DNA of 37,506 nucleotides from a virus. Lineage: Duplodnaviria; Heunggongvirae; Uroviricota; Caudoviricetes. The notes below the pieces were generated by a model that was given only the letters and a program-made list of their open reading frames with translations, made no database searches and was not told where the DNA came from. Made by a program: the position numbers and the translations under genes. The DNA is taken from IMG/VR virus record IMGVR_UViG_2718218098_000004. One strand, written 5' to 3'. Shown piece by piece: positions 6,378 through 30,462 of this stretch (position 1 is the stretch's first letter; the number at the start of each line of letters is the position of its first letter).

Positions 6378-7070
6378 TTAAAACAACGAGCCAAGCAATC
6401 CGATACCAGCACCAATGCCAGCGCCCCAAGGCGTTGATGTTCCCAAAAGGCTGGCAAGACCTGCACCGGCAATCGCACCGGACGTTCCGCCGCTAATTGC
6501 TGTCTGAAGACTTGATGGTTTGTTGGCATTAGCAGCGGCAAGAGCTGCGCTTTGCTGTGCAATGCTGCTCATGTTGTTGGCGTACGTCTGCCCGGCGTTT
6601 GCCTGACCTTGCAGAGCACCAAGCCCAACGTTTGCCAGATTGTTGTAATTGCTCATCTGGTTTGATAACCAAGACTGACCGAGAGTCGGCGCGATCGTAG
6701 CCAGTTGATTGCTTGTGGCTGTCGAACCAAGTCCTCCCGTAGCCTCCGCAGCAGCAAGACTCTGGTAACGAGCCTGACCTGCAAGGTCTTTATACTGCTG
6801 AGAGTTGTAATACTGATTAAGTGCCTGCCCCTGACCTTCTAAACTGGAAAGGTTCTGAAGCTGGTTAACATACTGCTCCGCAAGCGGCGTGAACGGAGCA
6901 AGGTTTTTCATGATCGTCTGCCACTGCTGATTTTGCAGGTCTGCGGCATACTTCTGGGCTTCTGCTGCATACTTTGCGCTTTTATCAGAGCTACCACCTT
7001 TCCCGCCTTTTTCATGGCACCAAGGTTCCTCGCCGCGCAGTTTTCTGCCCAGCTTAAATGCATATAACAT
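6378..7070 (-). CDS. Ejection protein, P22 gp7-like
   Basis: 230 aa; N-terminus MLYAFKLGRKLRGEEP...EKGGKGGSS resembles P22 gp7; Gly/Ala-rich C-terminus. Confidence 0.75.
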   Translation of the reverse strand: MLYAFKLGRKLRGEEPWCHEKGGKGGSSDKSAKYAAEAQKYAADLQNQQWQTIMKNLAPFTPLAEQYVNQLQNLSSLEGQGQALNQYYNSQQYKDLAGQARYQSLAAAEATGGLGSTATSNQLATIAPTLGQSWLSNQMSNYNNLANVGLGALQGQANAGQTYANNMSSIAQQSAALAAANANKPSSLQTAISGGTSGAIAGAGLASLLGTSTPWGAGIGAGIGLLGSLF

Positions 7071-8376: not shown

Positions 8377-9794
8377 TACTCAATCCTTATCTGGCAGCCA
8401 GAAAGAGTGACAGGTGACTTCGTGATAACGCGCAATTTGAAGCCAACATTTTTCCTGATGCGCCCTACTCGCTTCCATAAAACACGTTTGTCGTAAACGA
8501 ACGGTTCATTCTGCTCAATCATCTGCTCACGCCCGTAATTGATGCCGTCAGTGGTTGCAGAGAGGAACAGGCGGTCGGCGTACTGAGCTACGCCAGTGGA
8601 TGATTCCACCTCCAGATCGAAGCATCTGGCGTTATCCGCTTTGAACAACGGAGTAAACAGAAGGTGTTCCTGTTGCTTGTCGTACTGGCTGCTGATGTCG
8701 AACTGCAATTTCCCGGTCACCGATTCCAGCTTATCGCCGCACGTTATCTGATTGCCTTCGTAAATGAAGTCGATAGCGCGGTACACATCGTCATACAGGC
8801 CTGTTTTCAACACACACCATTGCGGACCATTAGAGCTTGAAGATGCATCGTATACGAGGACATGGCGCGGAAGATGGATAATCAGCAACTCATGCGCATC
8901 AAAGCGCAGCGATTCCATCACACCATCAGCCAGTTCATCAGCAGTGTAGGAGCGTAGTATTTTCTCAATGCTCGCGCTGGCGATTGGTGATACCTGACCG
9001 GAGCCGATGATGTATACAGACGGCGCACCCGTTGCCGGATTGCTGATGAACGCATACGAATCAGCAAACGGCGTTTTGCAGTAAGTCCCGGCAATGCCTT
9101 TCTGCACCATTAACGATGGCTGGGCGACATACAAAGCGGCACCTACAGTGGTTGCGCCAGTCAGGGAGAAATATTCAATCGTCGATGAACCAAAGCAGAC
9201 GATGAAGTCTCGCCATGTGCCGATGCCGATGATTCCGTCAGGCTGAGACTCGGCACGATATTGTGCGCTGTAGCGGTCAGGGTGCGATTCGTCTTCGAGG
9301 TCAGTGATAAACCATGAATCAGTTCCGTCTTTTGACCACGCATAACGCCCACGTAAGCGCGTAATGTCACGAACAGAACCTAGCTCATACTGCGTAAATC
9401 CACTGTCTGTAGGCCAGTTTGAGACGGTTTTAACCGTGCCATCATAGCGATACTCGACCAGTTGACCATTAACGCCTACCGCCTGTGATGTCCGACCATG
9501 CGCCATTGATACACGACCACTTCCGGCGACGTCACCGACTTCGCTTTCGCCTTTGTAGAGCTTGCCGCCACACACGCGATAAACAGCACTCTGCGCCATG
9601 TTGTACTCGACGCCTCGAGATATACCGTTCACATCAGAACGTTTGGCAATGCCCGGGAATGAGCGAAGATATCCGCTGCTGTTCAGGATTTCTTTGGGTG
9701 TAGCCAACATATTCACTGGCAGATAGTCGATATAGTCGGCGTTTCGAAAGTCTTTGCCGACACCTTTCATAAGCGGAAGTTGCTGAATCGGCAT
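8376..9794 (-). CDS. Tail accessory / head completion protein, P22 gp10-like
   Basis: 472 aa, same length class and position as P22 gp10. Confidence 0.85.
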
Positions 9795-10294
9795 TATTCG
9801 CTCCCGTTATCGCAAGGTTCCTTTCGGTGGAAGTAATTCCAACCATTCCACTTCGCCAACTGGTTACCACTACCAACAGGCATACGGTTTGGATAACCGG
9901 ACTTACATTTAGCGGCTTTTGCTCTGTCCATTGCAGACAGTTTGACGAGTCGCTCTTTCCCGTATCTGGCAGTGGTTATAAGTTTTGCAGACGCTTCCAG
10001 CGCATAATCCGGAGCAATGCGGCAGGCAAGGTTGAAAATGACGGCATTGATAGCGTTATTTGATAAGCCGTGTTCATCGCCAGGATCTGGAGCGACATCT
10101 GCATCAGCGAAAATGTAGCCAACGTTGATACCTGGTGACTCATCACCGCCAAGCCATTCAGCCATCATCATTTCAAGGTCATTGACGCCATCTTCCATGG
10201 ACTGCGGTTCGACATCGGTTAACGTGGCATTTGATGCCACACCGAGCTTACGTAATGCTGCAAGAACTAAATCACCCTTCGTTGTCAGGTTCAT
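9794..10294 (-). CDS. Tail accessory protein, P22 gp4-like (167 aa)
   Basis: [31 protein letters not shown] resembles P22 gp4; start moved to the internal ATG at 10292-10294 (MNLTTKGDL) to match gp4 length; the track ORF's upstream MQSQSQ codons belong to the hexanucleotide repeat in another gene's frame. Confidence 0.85.
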
Positions 10295-10877
10295 CTGCTG
10301 CCGCCTTAGGTTTTCGACCAGGCTTTTTACGCTGTTTTTCTTCTGGCTCTGGCTCTGGCTCTGGCTCTGCAATAGCCGGACGCAAACTCAGGAGTCGTCC
10401 AAGAACATCATTTGCTTCATGACCATCCCACTCTTTCCCGAACTCAAGCTCAGTACCTTCAGGAAGGAACTCGATTTCTTCAACAGGTAGGTGATAAGTG
10501 ATTTCGCCTTCTGGAGTGGTGATACCAGCAATGATCCAGCCATCCCACTCTTCACCGTCACTGTGTTTGCGAGACCACCACGAAAGCTCAGCGTAAGCAT
10601 GCATCAGCGATGAGAAGAGGCGCACTCGGTGAGCGTAAAGCTCGTTAAAAGTGTGATAACCGTCGGACACTTCGCCCATATCAACTGGGTAAGTTTCACC
10701 TCCGCCAACACTCCCAATTTGATCACCAACAAGAGGATCATCAGGAACATCGTCAGGGTGCTTATACCAGCCATTTGCTAAGTGCACAGCTACATCATCA
10801 GGATCAACGGTTTTCGTTTTCAGCTTGCGTCCCCAGATTTTGGTATCTCCGCCAGCCTGAAAAATCATTACGCTCAT
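10272..10877 (-). CDS. Hypothetical acidic protein (about 202 aa) between coat and gp4-like genes, with a C-terminal (PE)n and Lys/Arg-rich tail
   Basis: ATG at 10875-10877 preceded by GGAGAT; track ORF start at 11057 would overlap the coat gene so the internal start is preferred; no family recognised. Confidence 0.6.
10345..10368. repeat. Hexanucleotide microsatellite (GGCTCT)x4, encoding PEPEPEPE on the minus strand
   Basis: Perfect tandem copies read directly. Confidence 0.9.
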
Positions 10878-10886
10878 TGGTATCTC

Positions 10887-10915
10887 CAATAGAAAAGGGA
10901 GCCGAAGCTCCCTCT
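10887..10915 (-). terminator. Intrinsic terminator/attenuator hairpin just downstream of the coat gene
   Basis: Minus-strand RNA GGGAGC-UUCG-GCUCCC (6-bp stem, UUCG tetraloop) followed by UUUUCUAUU, then the SD and ATG of the next gene. Confidence 0.6.
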
Positions 10916-10920
10916 GGTTA

Positions 10921-12216
10921 TCACGCAGCCTGGTTAGGCAGACCAACGCCAATTGCCTCTGGTCGTACAGCACATGCTGAATACCACACAGCAATACGGC
11001 ACTTACCAGACAGAGTGTTGATATCACCCTGCGTTGCGAAGATGCCGTTAACACCAATACCAGGAATGCTGAAGGAAGACGTTTTCATGCCAGCAAACAG
11101 TTCATGGGTTACCGGGATCGGCTGAGACAGCAGACGGATTGAGTCATCAGCCCAGAACACGTTAGCGGTGGTTGTTGCCACGTTCAGAACGTTTACCGGA
11201 GTGGTATCAGCAAGAGATGTGTTTACATTAGCGTAAGCCTTCTCTTCTTTTGTCAGTGACGCGTCATCCAGTGCAATCGGTTTCGGCGTGATTTCGATAT
11301 GAGTACCATCGATCACACGGGTGATTGAGAAAGTCGCATCATCAGTCAGCACGTTCTTCGCCATCTGAGACAGGAATTTCACACCAGTGAAGCTGATTTT
11401 GTCGCCGCGCTTAAATCCGGTGGTGGAGGATAAGGTCACCGTTGCAACACGGTTGTCGACGTTCTCTTTGTTACCATCGGTATCAAGGGTGTATGCCTGC
11501 GGCTTAAACTTCTGCGCACCAGAAACAGTTACACCAGTAGCGGTTGACTTGGTAACTGCAGGAAGTTTCGGTGAGCGAAGAATTTCATCAAAGCCAGCAA
11601 TCTGACGCTGAATAGTACCGTTGCGATAAGCTTCTTCAGGAACGCGCCCAAAGATGTCACCATCTACCAGGTTACGGCCTGCTTTGCGGTAATCGTCAGG
11701 GTTCAGGAAGTAACTGATGCCCATGTCGCGGTTGAGTTCGCGGGAGAACATCAGGCGCTCTGCATCAGACACAAAATCCCAGCCAGACAGGCCAGTAGAT
11801 GGACCAATTGCGCGGGTATCGTGAACAACAAGTGAGCCCATTTCAGTTGCCTGTTTGGCAATCGCTGACTCAATGTTATTCGCCAGTTTTTTGGCAGATG
11901 CCTGGATGCGGCGACGGTAAGAACGCTCATCACGCAGGTCATCTGCACGAAGCTCGAAGAAATCGTTATCCGGATCGCCCATGTTGCATTTCACGGAGAG
12001 TTCCAGAATCCCGGTTGCGTTGCCAGTTAAATCCCAGCCAGTCTGGGTTGGCGCTTCCTGCTCAACAGGCATCCACACGGTGTTGCTTGAACGTTGCATG
12101 GATTCTGCCGGAGGGGTGTATTTTGTCACTTTGGACGCCATTGGCGTCAGGTTCTGGACGGTTTCGATGATTTCATCCAGAGCATACGTGACCAGTTGAC
12201 CTTCATTTAATGCCAT
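10921..12216 (-). CDS. Major capsid (coat) protein, P22 gp5 family
   Basis: 431 aa; near-collinear with P22 coat as recalled (MALNEGQ...[10 protein letters not shown]). Confidence 0.95.
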
Positions 12217-17475: not shown

Positions 17476-17551
17476 ATCATGCTCCGGTAGTGAACAGGTC
17501 TAACGCTTCCTTCGATTTACGCACCGCTTCGATAGTGCGGGTCGTGATATC

Positions 17552-17719
17552 TTAATTAGCGCCGCCTGACTGGAAGTGAATTTTGAATAGCTCAAGCTTC
17601 AACTCGTCAGTGCCGATGAATTGAAATGCTTCTTCTGCGGCTGCGTTCTGGTTCATGACCAGTTTGTAAATCTCTAACTGGAATTTCTGTTCTTCAGTCA
17701 TGGGAATAATCTCTGCCAT
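17552..17719 (-). CDS. Candidate small ORF (55 aa, MAEIIPMTEEQKFQLEIYKLVMNQ...)
   Basis: GGAG 6 nt before ATG at 17717-17719; reading continues in frame for 24 more codons after the TAA, so it may be a nonsense-interrupted remnant. Confidence 0.3.
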   Translation of the reverse strand: MAEIIPMTEEQKFQLEIYKLVMNQNAAAEEAFQFIGTDELKLELFKIHFQSGGAN

Positions 17720-24199: not shown

Positions 24200-25636
24200 T
24201 CAGAATCCTCCTTTCTTCTTGGACTGCGGTTCCTCGCGTTCACGGCGGCGCATTTCAGCAGACTGTTGGTCTGTGTCATAAATAGCGCCATTTGCCTGAA
24301 TGCAATACACCGTGCCGGTATTGCCATGACGATTGAGACGAAGGATTAGTTCGGTTTCACCAGGTGGAACACTGTCATCAAAAGCACCTTCACGATGGAT
24401 CCCCACCCAATAATCGCAATCCTGTTCAATCTGCCCTGTATCTCGTGAGTCACTTGGTAATGGGCGTTTATTGGTTCGGCTTTCCAGTGCGCGGTTAAGC
24501 TGTGTCAGAAGCACAACAACGCAATCAAGCTCTTTGGCAATGTTCTTCAGTCCTTTGGTGATCATGCCGTAAGCAAGGTCGTTGCGATCGGCCTTCTCAG
24601 CGGTCATTAGTGTCAGGTAATCGACCAGAATCATGCCAACACATCCTTTTTCTCGCTTGATTCGACGGCTTTCGCTGACGATTTGAGCCAGAGATAATCC
24701 AGGCGTGTCGTCGATGTAAAGCAGGTCGATTTCACTCAAGCGATTGGCTGTTTCGATCGCCCTGTTGAAGTCACCATCGTAATCACCCTGATAGCCGTCA
24801 TCAGCGTCATTTGTCGCCGGAAGGTAAAAAATATTCGGGTTAACACCTGACTTCTGTCCTACCAGTTTTTCCAGTATCTGGTCACCGGGCATTTCAAGGC
24901 TGAACATCAGAGCGGGCTTTTTCTCATGCACTGCGCAGTTGATTGCCATCTGGCTGTATAGCGTCGTTTTCCCCATCTTAGGGCGAGCGCCAATGACAAA
25001 CAGAGAGCCTTTCACCAGGCCTTTCGGTGACAGCATCCTGTCCAGCGATGGGATCCCTGTGCTCATTCCTCGTTGTTCGCCTGACGGGTCAAATCGCTTC
25101 TCAAGGTCGCTAACCCAGTCTTCCATGACCTCACCAAATGAGCGAAGGCCGCGACGCGATCCGGTTTTTGCATGGTCTGTCAGTTGCGTGAAAATCGACT
25201 GAATAGCTTCGTACTTCTGCGTTGCAGTCATTCCGTTGCGGGAATAGAGCAATTCCGTCGCTTCAGTCATGCGGTTGATGGCGTAGCGTTCCATTGCGGT
25301 TTCACGAACCTGCATTGCATAGGCAACGATGTTTGCTGCGCTTGGCGTGTTCTTTGCGATCTCAGCGATATAAGCAAAACCGCCAACAGACACCGTTAAC
25401 GATTTACGCTCCAGTTCATCGAAAAGCGTCAGGCCATCTACTGGCTTTTGCTCCCGGTGCATTCTGGTTATTTCTTCGAAAAGGATTTTGTGTGGTCGGC
25501 TGTAAAATGAATCGGGCTTCAGCATCGCCAGAACTTTCTGGACGCGCTCACTGCTGTCATCATCCAGAAGCAATCCACCAATCACCGCCTGCTCTGCCTC
25601 GATGCTATGGGGCGGCGCATAAAAATTATCGGTCAT
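24200..25636 (-). CDS. Replicative DNA helicase (DnaB family; P22 gene 12-like)
   Basis: DnaB N-terminal domain plus Walker A GARPKMGKTT; start placed at the ATG at 25634-25636 preceded by GAGG. Confidence 0.9.
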   Translation of the reverse strand: MTDNFYAPPHSIEAEQAVIGGLLLDDDSSERVQKVLAMLKPDSFYSRPHKILFEEITRMHREQKPVDGLTLFDELERKSLTVSVGGFAYIAEIAKNTPSAANIVAYAMQVRETAMERYAINRMTEATELLYSRNGMTATQKYEAIQSIFTQLTDHAKTGSRRGLRSFGEVMEDWVSDLEKRFDPSGEQRGMSTGIPSLDRMLSPKGLVKGSLFVIGARPKMGKTTLYSQMAINCAVHEKKPALMFSLEMPGDQILEKLVGQKSGVNPNIFYLPATNDADDGYQGDYDGDFNRAIETANRLSEIDLLYIDDTPGLSLAQIVSESRRIKREKGCVGMILVDYLTLMTAEKADRNDLAYGMITKGLKNIAKELDCVVVLLTQLNRALESRTNKRPLPSDSRDTGQIEQDCDYWVGIHREGAFDDSVPPGETELILRLNRHGNTGTVYCIQANGAIYDTDQQSAEMRRREREEPQSKKKGGF

Positions 25637-26453
25637 CGTGTTCACCCTCACGAACTTTCAGGTAGGTATTGTCGTTAAGCAGGAAATCAAATCCCTTTTT
25701 GTGCCAGACGGTTCCGCGTTGATGGTTTGGACGCTCTTCGAACATCCATCGGCAATTTTCGCCTACGTAGCTCAAATAATTTCTCCAGTCCTGCATCGTG
25801 AACCCATGTCCGTCAAGCTGGCGGGTTATCACTCCGGCTTTGCGCCAGAACGTTCGGATCTGGTTTTTACGCTTGTCATTCAGTGCGCGGATTCTTGGCG
25901 CTTCAGGAAGGATTTCGTGGTAAGCATCGACAACATCCTGACAGCTAACGGAAGGTTTTTTCTTGTCAGACTTTTTGTCTGCTGTGGCACTCTCTAATAC
26001 GTCAGTATTAGAGATATTATTTATATTATTGTTTATGGACAACCGTTGGACAACCGTTGGACAATCTCCGCTGAGAGCCGCACCATTACTGGTGTTTGCG
26101 TTGGACAACCGTTGGGCAACCGTTGGAAAATTTTTTGCCTGAAAATCGTCATATTTAACGATTGTAAACAGGCTAAATTTCTTCCCCATCGAGCAAATAT
26201 TAAGCATCCCTTTCGACTCAAAAGTCCGTAATAAGCTCCGAACTTTGTTGTCGGGGATGAATGTTTCTCTGACCAGCGACGGGCGTCCAGTTATCATCTG
26301 ACCGCGATCAACAGTTATCGGACCGATATCCGTATTGACGACAGTAGATTCGTGATTAGCCTTGAGGATTAAGTGAAGCCAAAGATGTACTGCCTGAGAG
26401 TCCTTATAGAGCCTGCTGTCCATAAACTGGCGGTGTATAGAGACATACCCCAT
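25626..26453 (-). CDS. Replication initiator protein (lambda O / P22 gene 18 analogue) containing the origin iterons
   Basis: Position between c1 and helicase; iterons inside the coding frame (PTVAQRLS / PTVVQRLS repeats); AGGAGG 8 nt before the ATG at 26451-26453. Confidence 0.8.
   Translation of the reverse strand: MGYVSIHRQFMDSRLYKDSQAVHLWLHLILKANHESTVVNTDIGPITVDRGQMITGRPSLVRETFIPDNKVRSLLRTFESKGMLNICSMGKKFSLFTIVKYDDFQAKNFPTVAQRLSNANTSNGAALSGDCPTVVQRLSINNNINNISNTDVLESATADKKSDKKKPSVSCQDVVDAYHEILPEAPRIRALNDKRKNQIRTFWRKAGVITRQLDGHGFTMQDWRNYLSYVGENCRWMFEERPNHQRGTVWHKKGFDFLLNDNTYLKVREGEHDDR
25985..26036. other. AT-rich region flanking the iterons (candidate DNA-unwinding element of the origin)
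   Basis: Run of A/T-rich sequence (aatacgtcagtattagagatattatttatattattgtttatgg) next to the iteron block. Confidence 0.5.
26038..26127. repeat. Origin iterons: four direct copies of CAACCGTTGG(A) in two tandem pairs about 45 bp apart
   Basis: Copies at 26040-26050, 26051-26061, 26106-26115, 26117-26127. Confidence 0.75.
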
Positions 26454-26538
26454 ACTGGATGCCTCCTGATTTTGTACAGGGTTATGCCTGTAATCAGCTA
26501 ACTTAACGACGCCCATGTTTCACTCCTGCTTTGGCTAG

Positions 26539-29493: not shown

Positions 29494-30462
29494 ATGAGTG
29501 AAGTAACAGATTTAGTTGTTATTGAAAAAGCAAATGCAATGACTGTATTTCAGTCTGCCGACCAGATTGAAGAAATCCTTCAAAAGGTTGAACGTGAAGT
29601 TATGTCCTTTGTGCCTGATATCACAACGGCAAAGGGCAGAAAGGAGATCGCTTCTCTGGCGTATAAAGTTGCGCAGACGAAAACATATCTCGATGGTCTT
29701 GGCAAAGACCTTGTTGCTGAACTGAAGGAAATTCCAAAGCTAATTGATGCTAACCGCAAGACAGTGCGTGATCGCCTTGATGAGCTGAAAGCCAAGGCGC
29801 GCCAGCCTCTTACTGATTATGAGGAAGAACAGGCGCGGATTAAAGCCGAAGAAGAAGCTAAGGCAGCAGCTGAAGCTCTCGCAAAGCAAATTGAGTCTGA
29901 CCATGAAATAGCGATTTTGATGGATCGCGAATTTGACCGCCAAAGAGAAGAGGCAAGACTCAAAGCGGAGCAGGAAAAGCGAGAGCATGAAGAACGCTTA
30001 AAAAGAGAAGCTGAAGAGAAAGCCAGAGCAGAAGCCGAAGCAAAGGCAAAAGCCGAAATTGAAGCAGCAGCAAGGCGAGAAGCAGAAGCTAAGGCCGCAG
30101 CGGAACGTGCAGAGCGTGAACGCATTGAAGCCGAGCAACGAGCACAGCGCGAAGCAAAAGAGGCAGCAGAACGAGCTGAAAGAGAAAAGCAGGCAGCAAT
30201 TGAAGCAGAACGCAGAAAAGCACAGGAGGAGGCTGAACGAATCCGTCGCGAGGCTGAAGCAAAAGAGCAAGCCAGAATAGCAGAAGAAAAAAGAATCAAG
30301 GACGAAGAAGAGCGTAGAGCAAAGGATAAAGCTCACCGGAAAGAAGTAAATAACAAAATACTTGCTGACCTTATCAAGGTTGGTGCATCAGAAGATGTTG
30401 CTAAAAATATCATAACAGCCATCGTAAAAGGCGAAGTATTCGCAACAAAAATAACCTACTAA
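29494..30462 (+). CDS. Hypothetical protein (322 aa) with a long E/R/K/A-rich helical central region
   Basis: GGAGGA before the ATG at 29494; central segment is a highly charged repeat (AEAKAKAEIEAAARREAEAK...) typical of a single alpha helix or coiled coil; globular N- and C-terminal regions unrecognised. Confidence 0.6.
   Translation: MSEVTDLVVIEKANAMTVFQSADQIEEILQKVEREVMSFVPDITTAKGRKEIASLAYKVAQTKTYLDGLGKDLVAELKEIPKLIDANRKTVRDRLDELKAKARQPLTDYEEEQARIKAEEEAKAAAEALAKQIESDHEIAILMDREFDRQREEARLKAEQEKREHEERLKREAEEKARAEAEAKAKAEIEAAARREAEAKAAAERAERERIEAEQRAQREAKEAAERAEREKQAAIEAERRKAQEEAERIRREAEAKEQARIAEEKRIKDEEERRAKDKAHRKEVNNKILADLIKVGASEDVAKNIITAIVKGEVFATKITY

Follow-up and report, generated by a model that had tools for sequence, protein, structure and literature searches.

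What is encoded between the coat gene and gene 4 of P22-like phages, where some genomes hold a long reading frame and P22 itself a short one? We addressed this question in a 37,506-nt stretch of viral DNA (IMG/VR record IMGVR_UViG_2718218098_000004; this whole stretch is referred to as the window), which derives from a P22-like prophage of Escherichia coli and shows 100% identity to E. coli strains M9 and M6 from mouse. The coat–gp4 slot of the window contains an open reading frame (ORF) at 10272..10877 on the minus strand, with its ATG at 10877..10875 and a frame of 201 codons plus stop. An initial annotation, made from the sequence alone, had described a 202-aa acidic protein at this place; the acidic character was borne out (isoelectric point (pI) 4.62; D+E = 41 versus K+R = 20; net charge about −21), while the protein is 201 aa long and only the count of codons, with the stop, reaches 202. 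Its remark that P22 has only a small ORF in this slot was correct (orf69, 69 aa). We found that the slot protein carries a conserved phage domain, WDGH, in a frame of slot-specific modules, and we propose that this domain may act in counter-defence.

A Pfam scan of the protein at E ≤ 1 returned WDGH only, with no match to Tad2 (PF11195), Sequestin (PF21825) or Acb2-Tad1 (PF24729). The WDGH domain (PF25311) covers residues 68–165 (10383..10676, minus strand), scored 134.7 bits against a cut-off of 27 (E = 1.4e-39) and spans profile positions 1–97 of 97. This identity of the globular part had escaped the initial annotation, as had the known family of long and short forms described below. In an AlphaFold2 model built on an 85-sequence alignment, WDGH was predicted to be an alpha/beta domain with a predicted local distance difference test (pLDDT) above 95. 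It is preceded by an N-terminal module (N-module; residues 1–45; 10743..10877, minus strand), which is matched by PHROG 1175, is common to the short forms and was modelled as a beta-hairpin plus helix (pLDDT 82–90), and by an acidic disordered linker (residues 46–67; 10677..10742, minus strand), which has pLDDT below 50 for residues 48–63 and varies in length in the alignment. Residues 166–201 were disordered in the model; they include a Glu-Pro spacer, (EP)4, at residues 171–178 and a basic, AT-hook-like tail at residues 181–191 (10305..10337, minus strand), read from the sequence, which spans the Shine-Dalgarno sequence AAGG of gp4. The Lys/Arg-rich end that had been noted after the Glu-Pro tract corresponds to this tail.

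The start codon and the reading frame, whose conservation the initial annotation had left in question, are intact in 28 IMG/VR and 6 RefSeq relatives from E. coli, in 42 Salmonella orthologues and in other enterobacterial orthologues, and the position of the protein between coat and gp4 is fixed in P22-like phages of Salmonella, E. coli, Proteus and Pseudomonas. Codon comparisons with three orthologues (L052, L055 and L101) at 56–80% protein identity gave a ratio of nonsynonymous to synonymous substitution rates (dN/dS) of about 0.13 for the whole gene, with about 0.05 in WDGH, 0.15–0.34 in the N-module, 0.3–0.9 in the acidic linker and 0.13–0.5 in the tail. These comparisons show a functional gene in which WDGH is the most constrained part, under strong purifying selection. 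A chance ORF or a decaying remnant might be suspected from the calls of the Prokaryotic Genome Annotation Pipeline (PGAP), which at the RefSeq E. coli loci (L001–L007) range from 110 aa and 133 aa to two 'partial pseudogene' pieces or the full length. The sequences under these erratic calls all hold an intact slot ORF, and the calls are annotation artefacts; this explanation is refuted by the intact ORFs of 195–203 aa, the low dN/dS of WDGH, the confident AlphaFold2 model and the full-length Pfam and PHROG matches, and we regard it as vanishingly improbable. The slot gene is almost certainly a genuine conserved accessory gene.

The protein belongs to a family that had been noticed before. It matched PHROG 3769 with E = 7.2e-100 (residues 1–199 against profile positions 1–186 of 186), and tblastn detected 62% identity over residues 1–165 to Orf186 of phages L and ST64T, gene 6 of epsilon34 and g341c, ORF54 of ST104 and the homologue in BTP1, all of which sit between coat and gene 4. 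The same synteny, a position after a P22-type coat gene with an overlap with the gp4 start, was seen in the window, in ST64T and in metagenomic relatives. Gene 6 homologues are reported to vary in length, that of P22 having a substantial internal deletion, and the gene, of unknown role, is non-essential in P22 in the laboratory (PMC2629481). The slot gene is therefore already known as a family without a function, of which the E. coli version described here is an additional member.

Comparison with the short forms reveals how the length variation is built. P22 orf69 aligns to residues 1–44 of the window protein and then skips to the basic tail (KPRKGRKPKAVSDADKD). In phages Dewey, IME10 and HZ41, coat and gp4 are 97% identical to the window and about 510 nt in the middle are missing; the Dewey slot holds an unannotated 84-aa ORF, in which a divergent N-module is followed by (EP)5 and then by exactly the tail of the window protein. 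PHROG 1175 is matched over the full length by orf69 and the Dewey ORF, and over residues 1–44 by the window protein. Short forms of 76–98 aa are very common in prophages of E. coli and Salmonella, and the N-module was detected by tblastn nowhere but in the coat–gp4 slot of P22-like phages, those of Proteus and Pseudomonas among them. Taken together, these alignments indicate a layout of N-module, optional WDGH cassette, (EP)n and basic tail, in which long and short forms differ by the insertion of one domain cassette.

What might the inserted cassette do? WDGH is not confined to this slot. A profile search returned 4456 WDGH clusters (50% identity) at E ≤ 1e-3, of which 1199 reached E ≤ 1e-30. 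Many of the best 130 members are stand-alone proteins of at most 160 aa (110–160 aa), and the median pI of the domain is 5.3. About 200 sequenced phages carry the domain, among them Listeria A511-like, Bacillus Tsamsa-like, jumbo Klebsiella and Serratia, streptococcal, lactococcal, actinobacterial and cyanobacterial phages. WDGH is combined with many different N- and C-terminal partners. Among 215 members scanned with Pfam, eight carry Sequestin (crAss001_48; PF21825), an anti-Thoeris sponge; three carry Lar (PF14354), a restriction alleviation domain; one, a Tad2-WDGH-Sequestin protein, carries the anti-Thoeris sponge Tad2-like (PF11195); and DUF551 (PF04448) and DUF6877 (PF21793), both of unknown role, occur in one member each. 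All partners of known function in this set act in counter-defence. A weak match to Trypan_PARP was dismissed as repeat composition. Sequestin itself was found to be a sponge of 3′ cyclic ADP-ribose by asking which uncharacterised Pfam families fuse to Tad2 or Acb4 (bioRxiv 10.1101/2025.07.12.664507). We apply the same fusion logic here, and for this reason favour a counter-defence role of WDGH, for and against which we judge the odds to be evenly balanced. A further partner was noted in P0052, P0062, P0070, P0076, P0080, P0098, P0105 and relatives, which share an extra conserved C-terminal domain of about 90 aa with the motif YQYAA..N..RG..H.DG...I....dY...RA.IA.D and without a Pfam match.

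Sponge genes also recur as neighbours of WDGH genes. On contig L103 the WDGH gene adjoins an Acb2_Tad1_hairpin gene and a Tad2-like+Sequestin gene lies 3 kb away; on L106 a Tad2-like gene is located about 2 kb upstream of the WDGH gene, and on L108 a Sequestin gene about 4 kb upstream. These clusters (L103 2031..3122 and 6523..6846; L106 3217..3858; L108 1633..2211) lie in temperate phage contigs of about 50–60 kb, each in one early accessory operon together with the WDGH gene and a Phage_Mu_Gp12 gene, and this operon looks like an anti-defence island. The fused Tad2-WDGH-Sequestin gene is situated between the lysis cassette and the terminase of a Serratia prophage, and in Streptococcus phage Javan318 the WDGH gene is among the head genes; these two placements are precedents for WDGH in a late region. 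In Bacillus phage Nate (L011 3845..5045), the WDGH gene gp134 overlaps the start of gp135, a NADAR-family gene. NADAR enzymes act on ADP-ribose-type adducts, and this pairing may bear on the ligand class of WDGH.

The same survey bears on a different explanation, that WDGH, as a small enzyme or binding domain, serves the nucleotide metabolism of phage or host, or host takeover, and has nothing to do with immunity, and that the sponge fusions reflect only a general shuffling of small accessory domains in phage genomes. Catalysis would suit the many near-invariant His, Asp and Arg residues, the large Bacillus and Listeria phages hold the WDGH gene in long runs of small early genes without known function, and the partners DUF551 and DUF6877 have no known role. 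However, none of the 215 members is fused to a Pfam domain of metabolism, replication or structure, the partners of known function all belong to counter-defence, and sponge genes recur as neighbours. We consider it unlikely.

We then asked what kind of site a counter-defence domain of this family could offer. In alignments of 85, 73 and 130 members, the near-invariant positions, numbered as in the window protein, are S71, D72, G73, H75, E79, Y81, H83, R84, W100, S102, H105, D107, Y128, H129, W150, D151, G152, H153 and R161, among which D72, G73, H75, Y81, H83, R84, S102, Y128, W150, D151, G152 and R161 are invariant. The signature motifs of the family (SDGYHTF, ELYxHR, WWS, H-x-DG, TYHLP, WDGH and an Arg in the last helix) are all present in the window protein. 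Such a concentration of His, Asp, Arg and aromatic residues is typical of a ligand or catalytic site. Two tandem-WDGH proteins have decayed in a complementary way: copy 1 keeps H75 and H83 and has lost H129, the WDGH motif and R161, while copy 2 has lost H75 and H83 and keeps all other positions. The simplest reading would be a site at a dimer interface, to which one domain contributes its first helix and the partner domain its sheet and loop motifs. That WDGH is a nucleotide-signal sponge or hydrolase is the more specific step, and we hold it as a doubtful possibility.

Database comparisons gave no direct counterpart of the domain. Scans of the slot protein with NCBIfam and PADLOC returned no match, no relative was found by sequence in the PDB, where the profile search was empty, and a BFVD search returned only other WDGH proteins. 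A literature search on WDGH and PF25311 found nothing relevant, and the preprint on Tad2/Acb2 diversity contained no relevant fusion data. No fold similarity to solved sponge structures was found. Matches by phmmer to poly(ADP-ribose) glycohydrolase in the PDB (E = 1.2) were dismissed as noise. Several candidate identities were rejected: a 2H-phosphoesterase, as its H-x-T/S motifs are out of register and the window protein has H-E-A after WDGH; Lockin, a hexamer of mostly beta structure that does not occur in INPHARED; Acb5, which occurs mainly in Streptomyces and Mycobacterium phages; and TadIV-1 or the aRES-countering Macro phosphatase, on grounds of fold, size or distribution.

Counter-defence could also be achieved by another mechanism, with the protein serving as an acidic DNA mimic or as a direct protein inhibitor, either of restriction or of a sensor of coat or portal protein. 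The strong negative charge of the slot protein and the acidic character of WDGH across the family would fit such a role, as would the three relatives fused to Lar, and production beside the coat protein would suit the masking of a capsid sensor. The conserved positions are, however, His, Arg and aromatic residues, not a patterned acidic surface, most of the extra negative charge lies in poorly conserved linkers, and no fold match to Ocr, ArdA or any anti-CRISPR was found. We judge this mechanism to be rather improbable.

The cassette is joined to the basic tail by the Glu-Pro spacer, which is encoded by a hexanucleotide microsatellite. Tandem Repeats Finder reported a repeat of period 6 with 4.7 copies and 100% matches at 10342..10369 (minus strand; (GAGCCA)4 on the coding strand), and the perfect (GGCTCT)4 pointed out by the initial annotation lies exactly at 10345–10368; the coding-strand product is A-(EP)4-EE, followed by the basic tail. 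It is the sole perfect repeat with at least four copies in the 37.5-kb window, with about 22 consecutive lag-6 matches, far above chance. Copy number was compared among 35 long forms from E. coli (six RefSeq genomes, 28 IMG/VR contigs and the window). One copy was found in 10 alleles, two in 13 (one variant, EPQP), three in 8 (two interrupted, EPESEP), four in 4, including the window, and five in 3, and all 35 ORFs are intact, 195–203 aa long and have the same start. The in-frame change of copy number by slippage that the initial annotation had expected is thus seen among relatives, over a range of 1–5 copies. In the short forms the (E/D-P) run has a length of 2–12, and among distant orthologues the EP tracts differ in length or other low-complexity spacers take their place. 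The Salmonella Orf186 loci provide a natural control: all 42 of 42 have a single EP and exactly 186 aa, and since no variation is seen where the repeat is missing, the repeat is the source of the length changes. A neighbour-joining ordering of the flanking sequences leaves the copy numbers interleaved, which suggests recurrent change of the repeat; mosaicism blurs this picture.

With a unit of 6 nt and a position upstream of the ribosome-binding site of gp4, the repeat can slip without switching off the gene or shifting the spacing of gp4. We therefore rejected on/off phase variation of the kind seen at a contingency locus, the 35 of 35 long-form alleles being in frame, and likewise an effect on gp4 spacing, which copy number leaves unaltered. 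In our reading, the EP tract serves as an extended acidic spacer, and changes in its length are nearly neutral. Two other repeats were recorded in the window. Two arrays of the 11-nt repeat TGGACAACCGT, with 2.6 copies each, occupy 26036..26064 and 26099..26127 within a 'DNA replication protein' gene (about 25626..26516, minus strand) and resemble lambda-type origin iterons. A degenerate period-6 repeat, AGAAGC, with about 14 copies and 63% matches, is found at 30006..30089 inside a 322-aa hypothetical early-left gene (about 29494..30462, plus strand) and may be another coding low-complexity tract.

The microsatellite also marks a mosaic junction. The 97% identity to Dewey breaks exactly at 10369 and resumes at 10883, and in the comparison with L052 the synonymous substitution rate (dS) is 1.13 in WDGH but only 0.21 in the tail. 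The slot is a clean natural case of an in-frame coding microsatellite that drifts in length, with a built-in control, at a module junction. The difference between long and short forms further explains how the slot has been widely misannotated: the short form is missed, gp4 is overextended and the long form is called a pseudogene. In the Dewey record PQ850600 (L010 595..1188), gp4 is extended upstream through the repeat in another frame to give a 197-aa 'head-tail adaptor', and as a consequence the 84-aa short form is unannotated in Dewey, IME10 and HZ41. The true gp4 start is the ATG at 10294, giving 166 aa. Similarly, we rejected a 192-aa TTG-initiated ORF at 9794..10372 in the window as gp4 read upstream through the repeat in another frame. 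Some short forms are misnamed 'dihydrolipoamide acetyltransferase' because of their EP run. A pseudogene flag was also encountered elsewhere in the window, at about 17477..17719 (minus strand), where the annotation of the identical M9 record of E. coli treats a DUF2560 family gene, located upstream of the small terminase gene, as a pseudogene carrying an internal stop.

How is the slot gene expressed, and does its place among head genes make its product a virion protein? The upstream neighbour is the P22-type coat gene (10921..12216, minus strand) and the downstream neighbour is gp4 (9794..10294, minus strand, as in the RefSeq annotation), with its ATG at 10294..10292. The slot gene has its own Shine-Dalgarno sequence, GGAG, read at 10884..10887 (minus strand), 6 nt upstream of the ATG. 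Its end overlaps the start of gp4 by 23 nt (10272..10294, minus strand), and the same overlap is present in ST64T and P22. Between the coat stop codon and the slot ORF, a stem-loop (GGGAGC-UUCG-GCUCCC followed by UUUUCU; 10891..10912, minus strand) was identified from the sequence and by RNA folding; a putative stem-loop is annotated at the counterpart position of P22 (6102–6119), and the element is also present in phage Dewey. This stem-loop could attenuate transcription or stabilise the coat mRNA; a consensus terminator scan did not call it, though it is visible by eye and by folding. No sigma-70-like promoter was found on either strand of 9600–11400 by a consensus scan (2.0 were expected from shuffles), which leaves room for weak or other promoters. 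The consensus scan likewise found no terminator-like site downstream of the slot ORF, which stops 23 nt inside gp4. The gene is accordingly not a moron in the strict sense, as the initial annotation had suggested it might be.

The same annotation had offered a virion-associated function as an alternative. According to this explanation, capsid or packaged DNA would be bound by the N-module and the AT-hook-like tail; the protein would enter the virion or assist in completing the head, and WDGH may accompany the DNA on delivery. The fixed position between coat and gp4 across P22-like phages, the translational link to gp4 and the WDGH gene among the head genes of a Streptococcus phage would all be in keeping with it, and so would the character of the tail. 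An AT-hook has an R-G-R-P core flanked by K/R. The tail core of the window protein, KKPGRKPKA, contains G-R-K-P and lacks R-G-R-P; KKPGPKPKA and KRGRKPKA occur in orthologues, and the canonical core (KKRGRPTKV or KKRGRPAKV) only in some of them (P0033, P0045 and L101). Part of the conservation of the tail may stem from the overlapping ribosome-binding site of gp4. Against a place in the virion, gels of epsilon34, which has a full-length gene 6, and of P22, in which it is deleted, differ only in gp13, the tailspike and a band of about 15 kDa, with no band of about 21 kDa named, and the gene can be dispensed with in P22 (PMC2629481). Most WDGH genes, moreover, are located elsewhere, in early accessory regions. 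Neither the gels nor this distribution favours a virion-associated function, and we consider it improbable.

We therefore return to counter-defence by neutralisation of a nucleotide signal, which can be set out as a sequence of steps. Late transcription would pass the stem-loop after coat and read the slot gene, and the protein would be translated from its own GGAG and ATG and end 23 nt inside gp4. Its core would be the slot-native N-module and basic tail, with the WDGH cassette inserted into it. The slippage-prone (EP)n would join WDGH to the tail and could drift freely in length, only its extended, acidic and proline-rich character being of importance, and the repeat would be the point at which mosaic recombination joins modules. 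WDGH would be the working part and would act in counter-defence as a dimer or higher oligomer. In the composite interface site, H75 and H83 of one subunit would face H105, D107, Y128, H129, W150-D151-G152-H153 and R161 of the other, and this site would bind a small immune signal derived from nucleotides, of the Thoeris or CBASS (cyclic oligonucleotide-based antiphage signalling system) type, which arises as late proteins build up; the signal would be either sequestered or cleaved. As a whole, an accessory late-operon protein whose WDGH domain acts in counter-defence, as an oligomer with a composite site for a nucleotide immune signal, is the explanation that we prefer, with a confidence that falls slightly short of even.

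Several observations weigh against this proposal. Recognised anti-defence partners were found in only about 6% of the WDGH members scanned, the Tad2-like Pfam family is broad, and L103, L106 and L108 are related 60-kb phages and not independent cases. The two tandem-WDGH proteins are probably related to each other. WDGH is net acidic (median pI 5.3), in contrast to the positive pockets of known sponges, and its five near-invariant His and three Asp residues fit another kind of metal enzyme equally well. Most known anti-defence genes are early, while the slot gene is in a late operon. The N-module and the basic tail are left unexplained by the model, and the dispensability of the gene in P22 fits an accessory role without being proof of one.

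The first observation at this locus, of an acidic protein inserted between coat and gp4, is an ordinary one: P22 workers had already noted the family as variable, dispensable and without known function, and the domain was already in Pfam. The wider proposal is that WDGH is a very widespread phage counter-defence family, with an inter-subunit His/Asp/Arg/Trp site that neutralises a nucleotide signal, and that in P22-like phages it is placed on a slot-specific carrier made together with the capsid proteins that trigger immunity. We put this forward tentatively, from sequence comparisons, as less probable than its opposite. If true, it would annotate thousands of phage proteins and provide a tool for Thoeris/CBASS-type signalling.

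Compared with its closest known relatives, the window protein is like gene 6 of epsilon34, Orf186 of ST64T and L, and ORF54 of ST104 in its slot, gp4 overlap, N-module, WDGH and basic tail. The Salmonella Orf186-type proteins differ in being 186 aa long with a single EP and no microsatellite, whereas the E. coli version has (EP)1–5 and a longer acidic linker. P22 orf69 and the Dewey/IME10-type ORFs likewise resemble the window protein in slot, N-module and basic tail but have no WDGH; the Dewey-type short forms have the (EP)n microsatellite in common with it, and the tail and gp4 side of their DNA is 97% identical. The tail is similar to the AT-hook motif in being basic and containing Pro and Gly, but it lacks the R-G-R-P core. 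TonB has rigid (EP)n and (KP)n spacers, and the E2 chains of 2-oxo-acid dehydrogenases have Ala/Pro/Glu-rich linkers. In the slot protein, similarly, alternating Glu-Pro residues lead into a Lys/Pro-rich segment, and the modules are linked through this extended spacer; unlike the spacers of TonB and the E2 chains, its Glu-Pro tract arises from a perfect hexanucleotide microsatellite and is length-polymorphic among near-identical prophages.

In the WDGH family at large, most members stand alone or have other N- or C-terminal partners, and their genes lie in early accessory regions; a frame of N-module, (EP)n and basic tail around the domain is peculiar to the P22-like group. With the known sponges and signal-cleaving enzymes (Tad1, Tad2, Acb2, Acb4, Sequestin, Lockin and Acb5), WDGH has no sequence or fold similarity. 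It is nevertheless, like them, small, phage-restricted and often stand-alone at about 110–160 aa, and it is fused or adjacent to members of this group. The known sponges and Acb5 have inter-subunit sites, to which a putative site of WDGH may be likened through the complementary decay of the tandem proteins, as read from their sequences.

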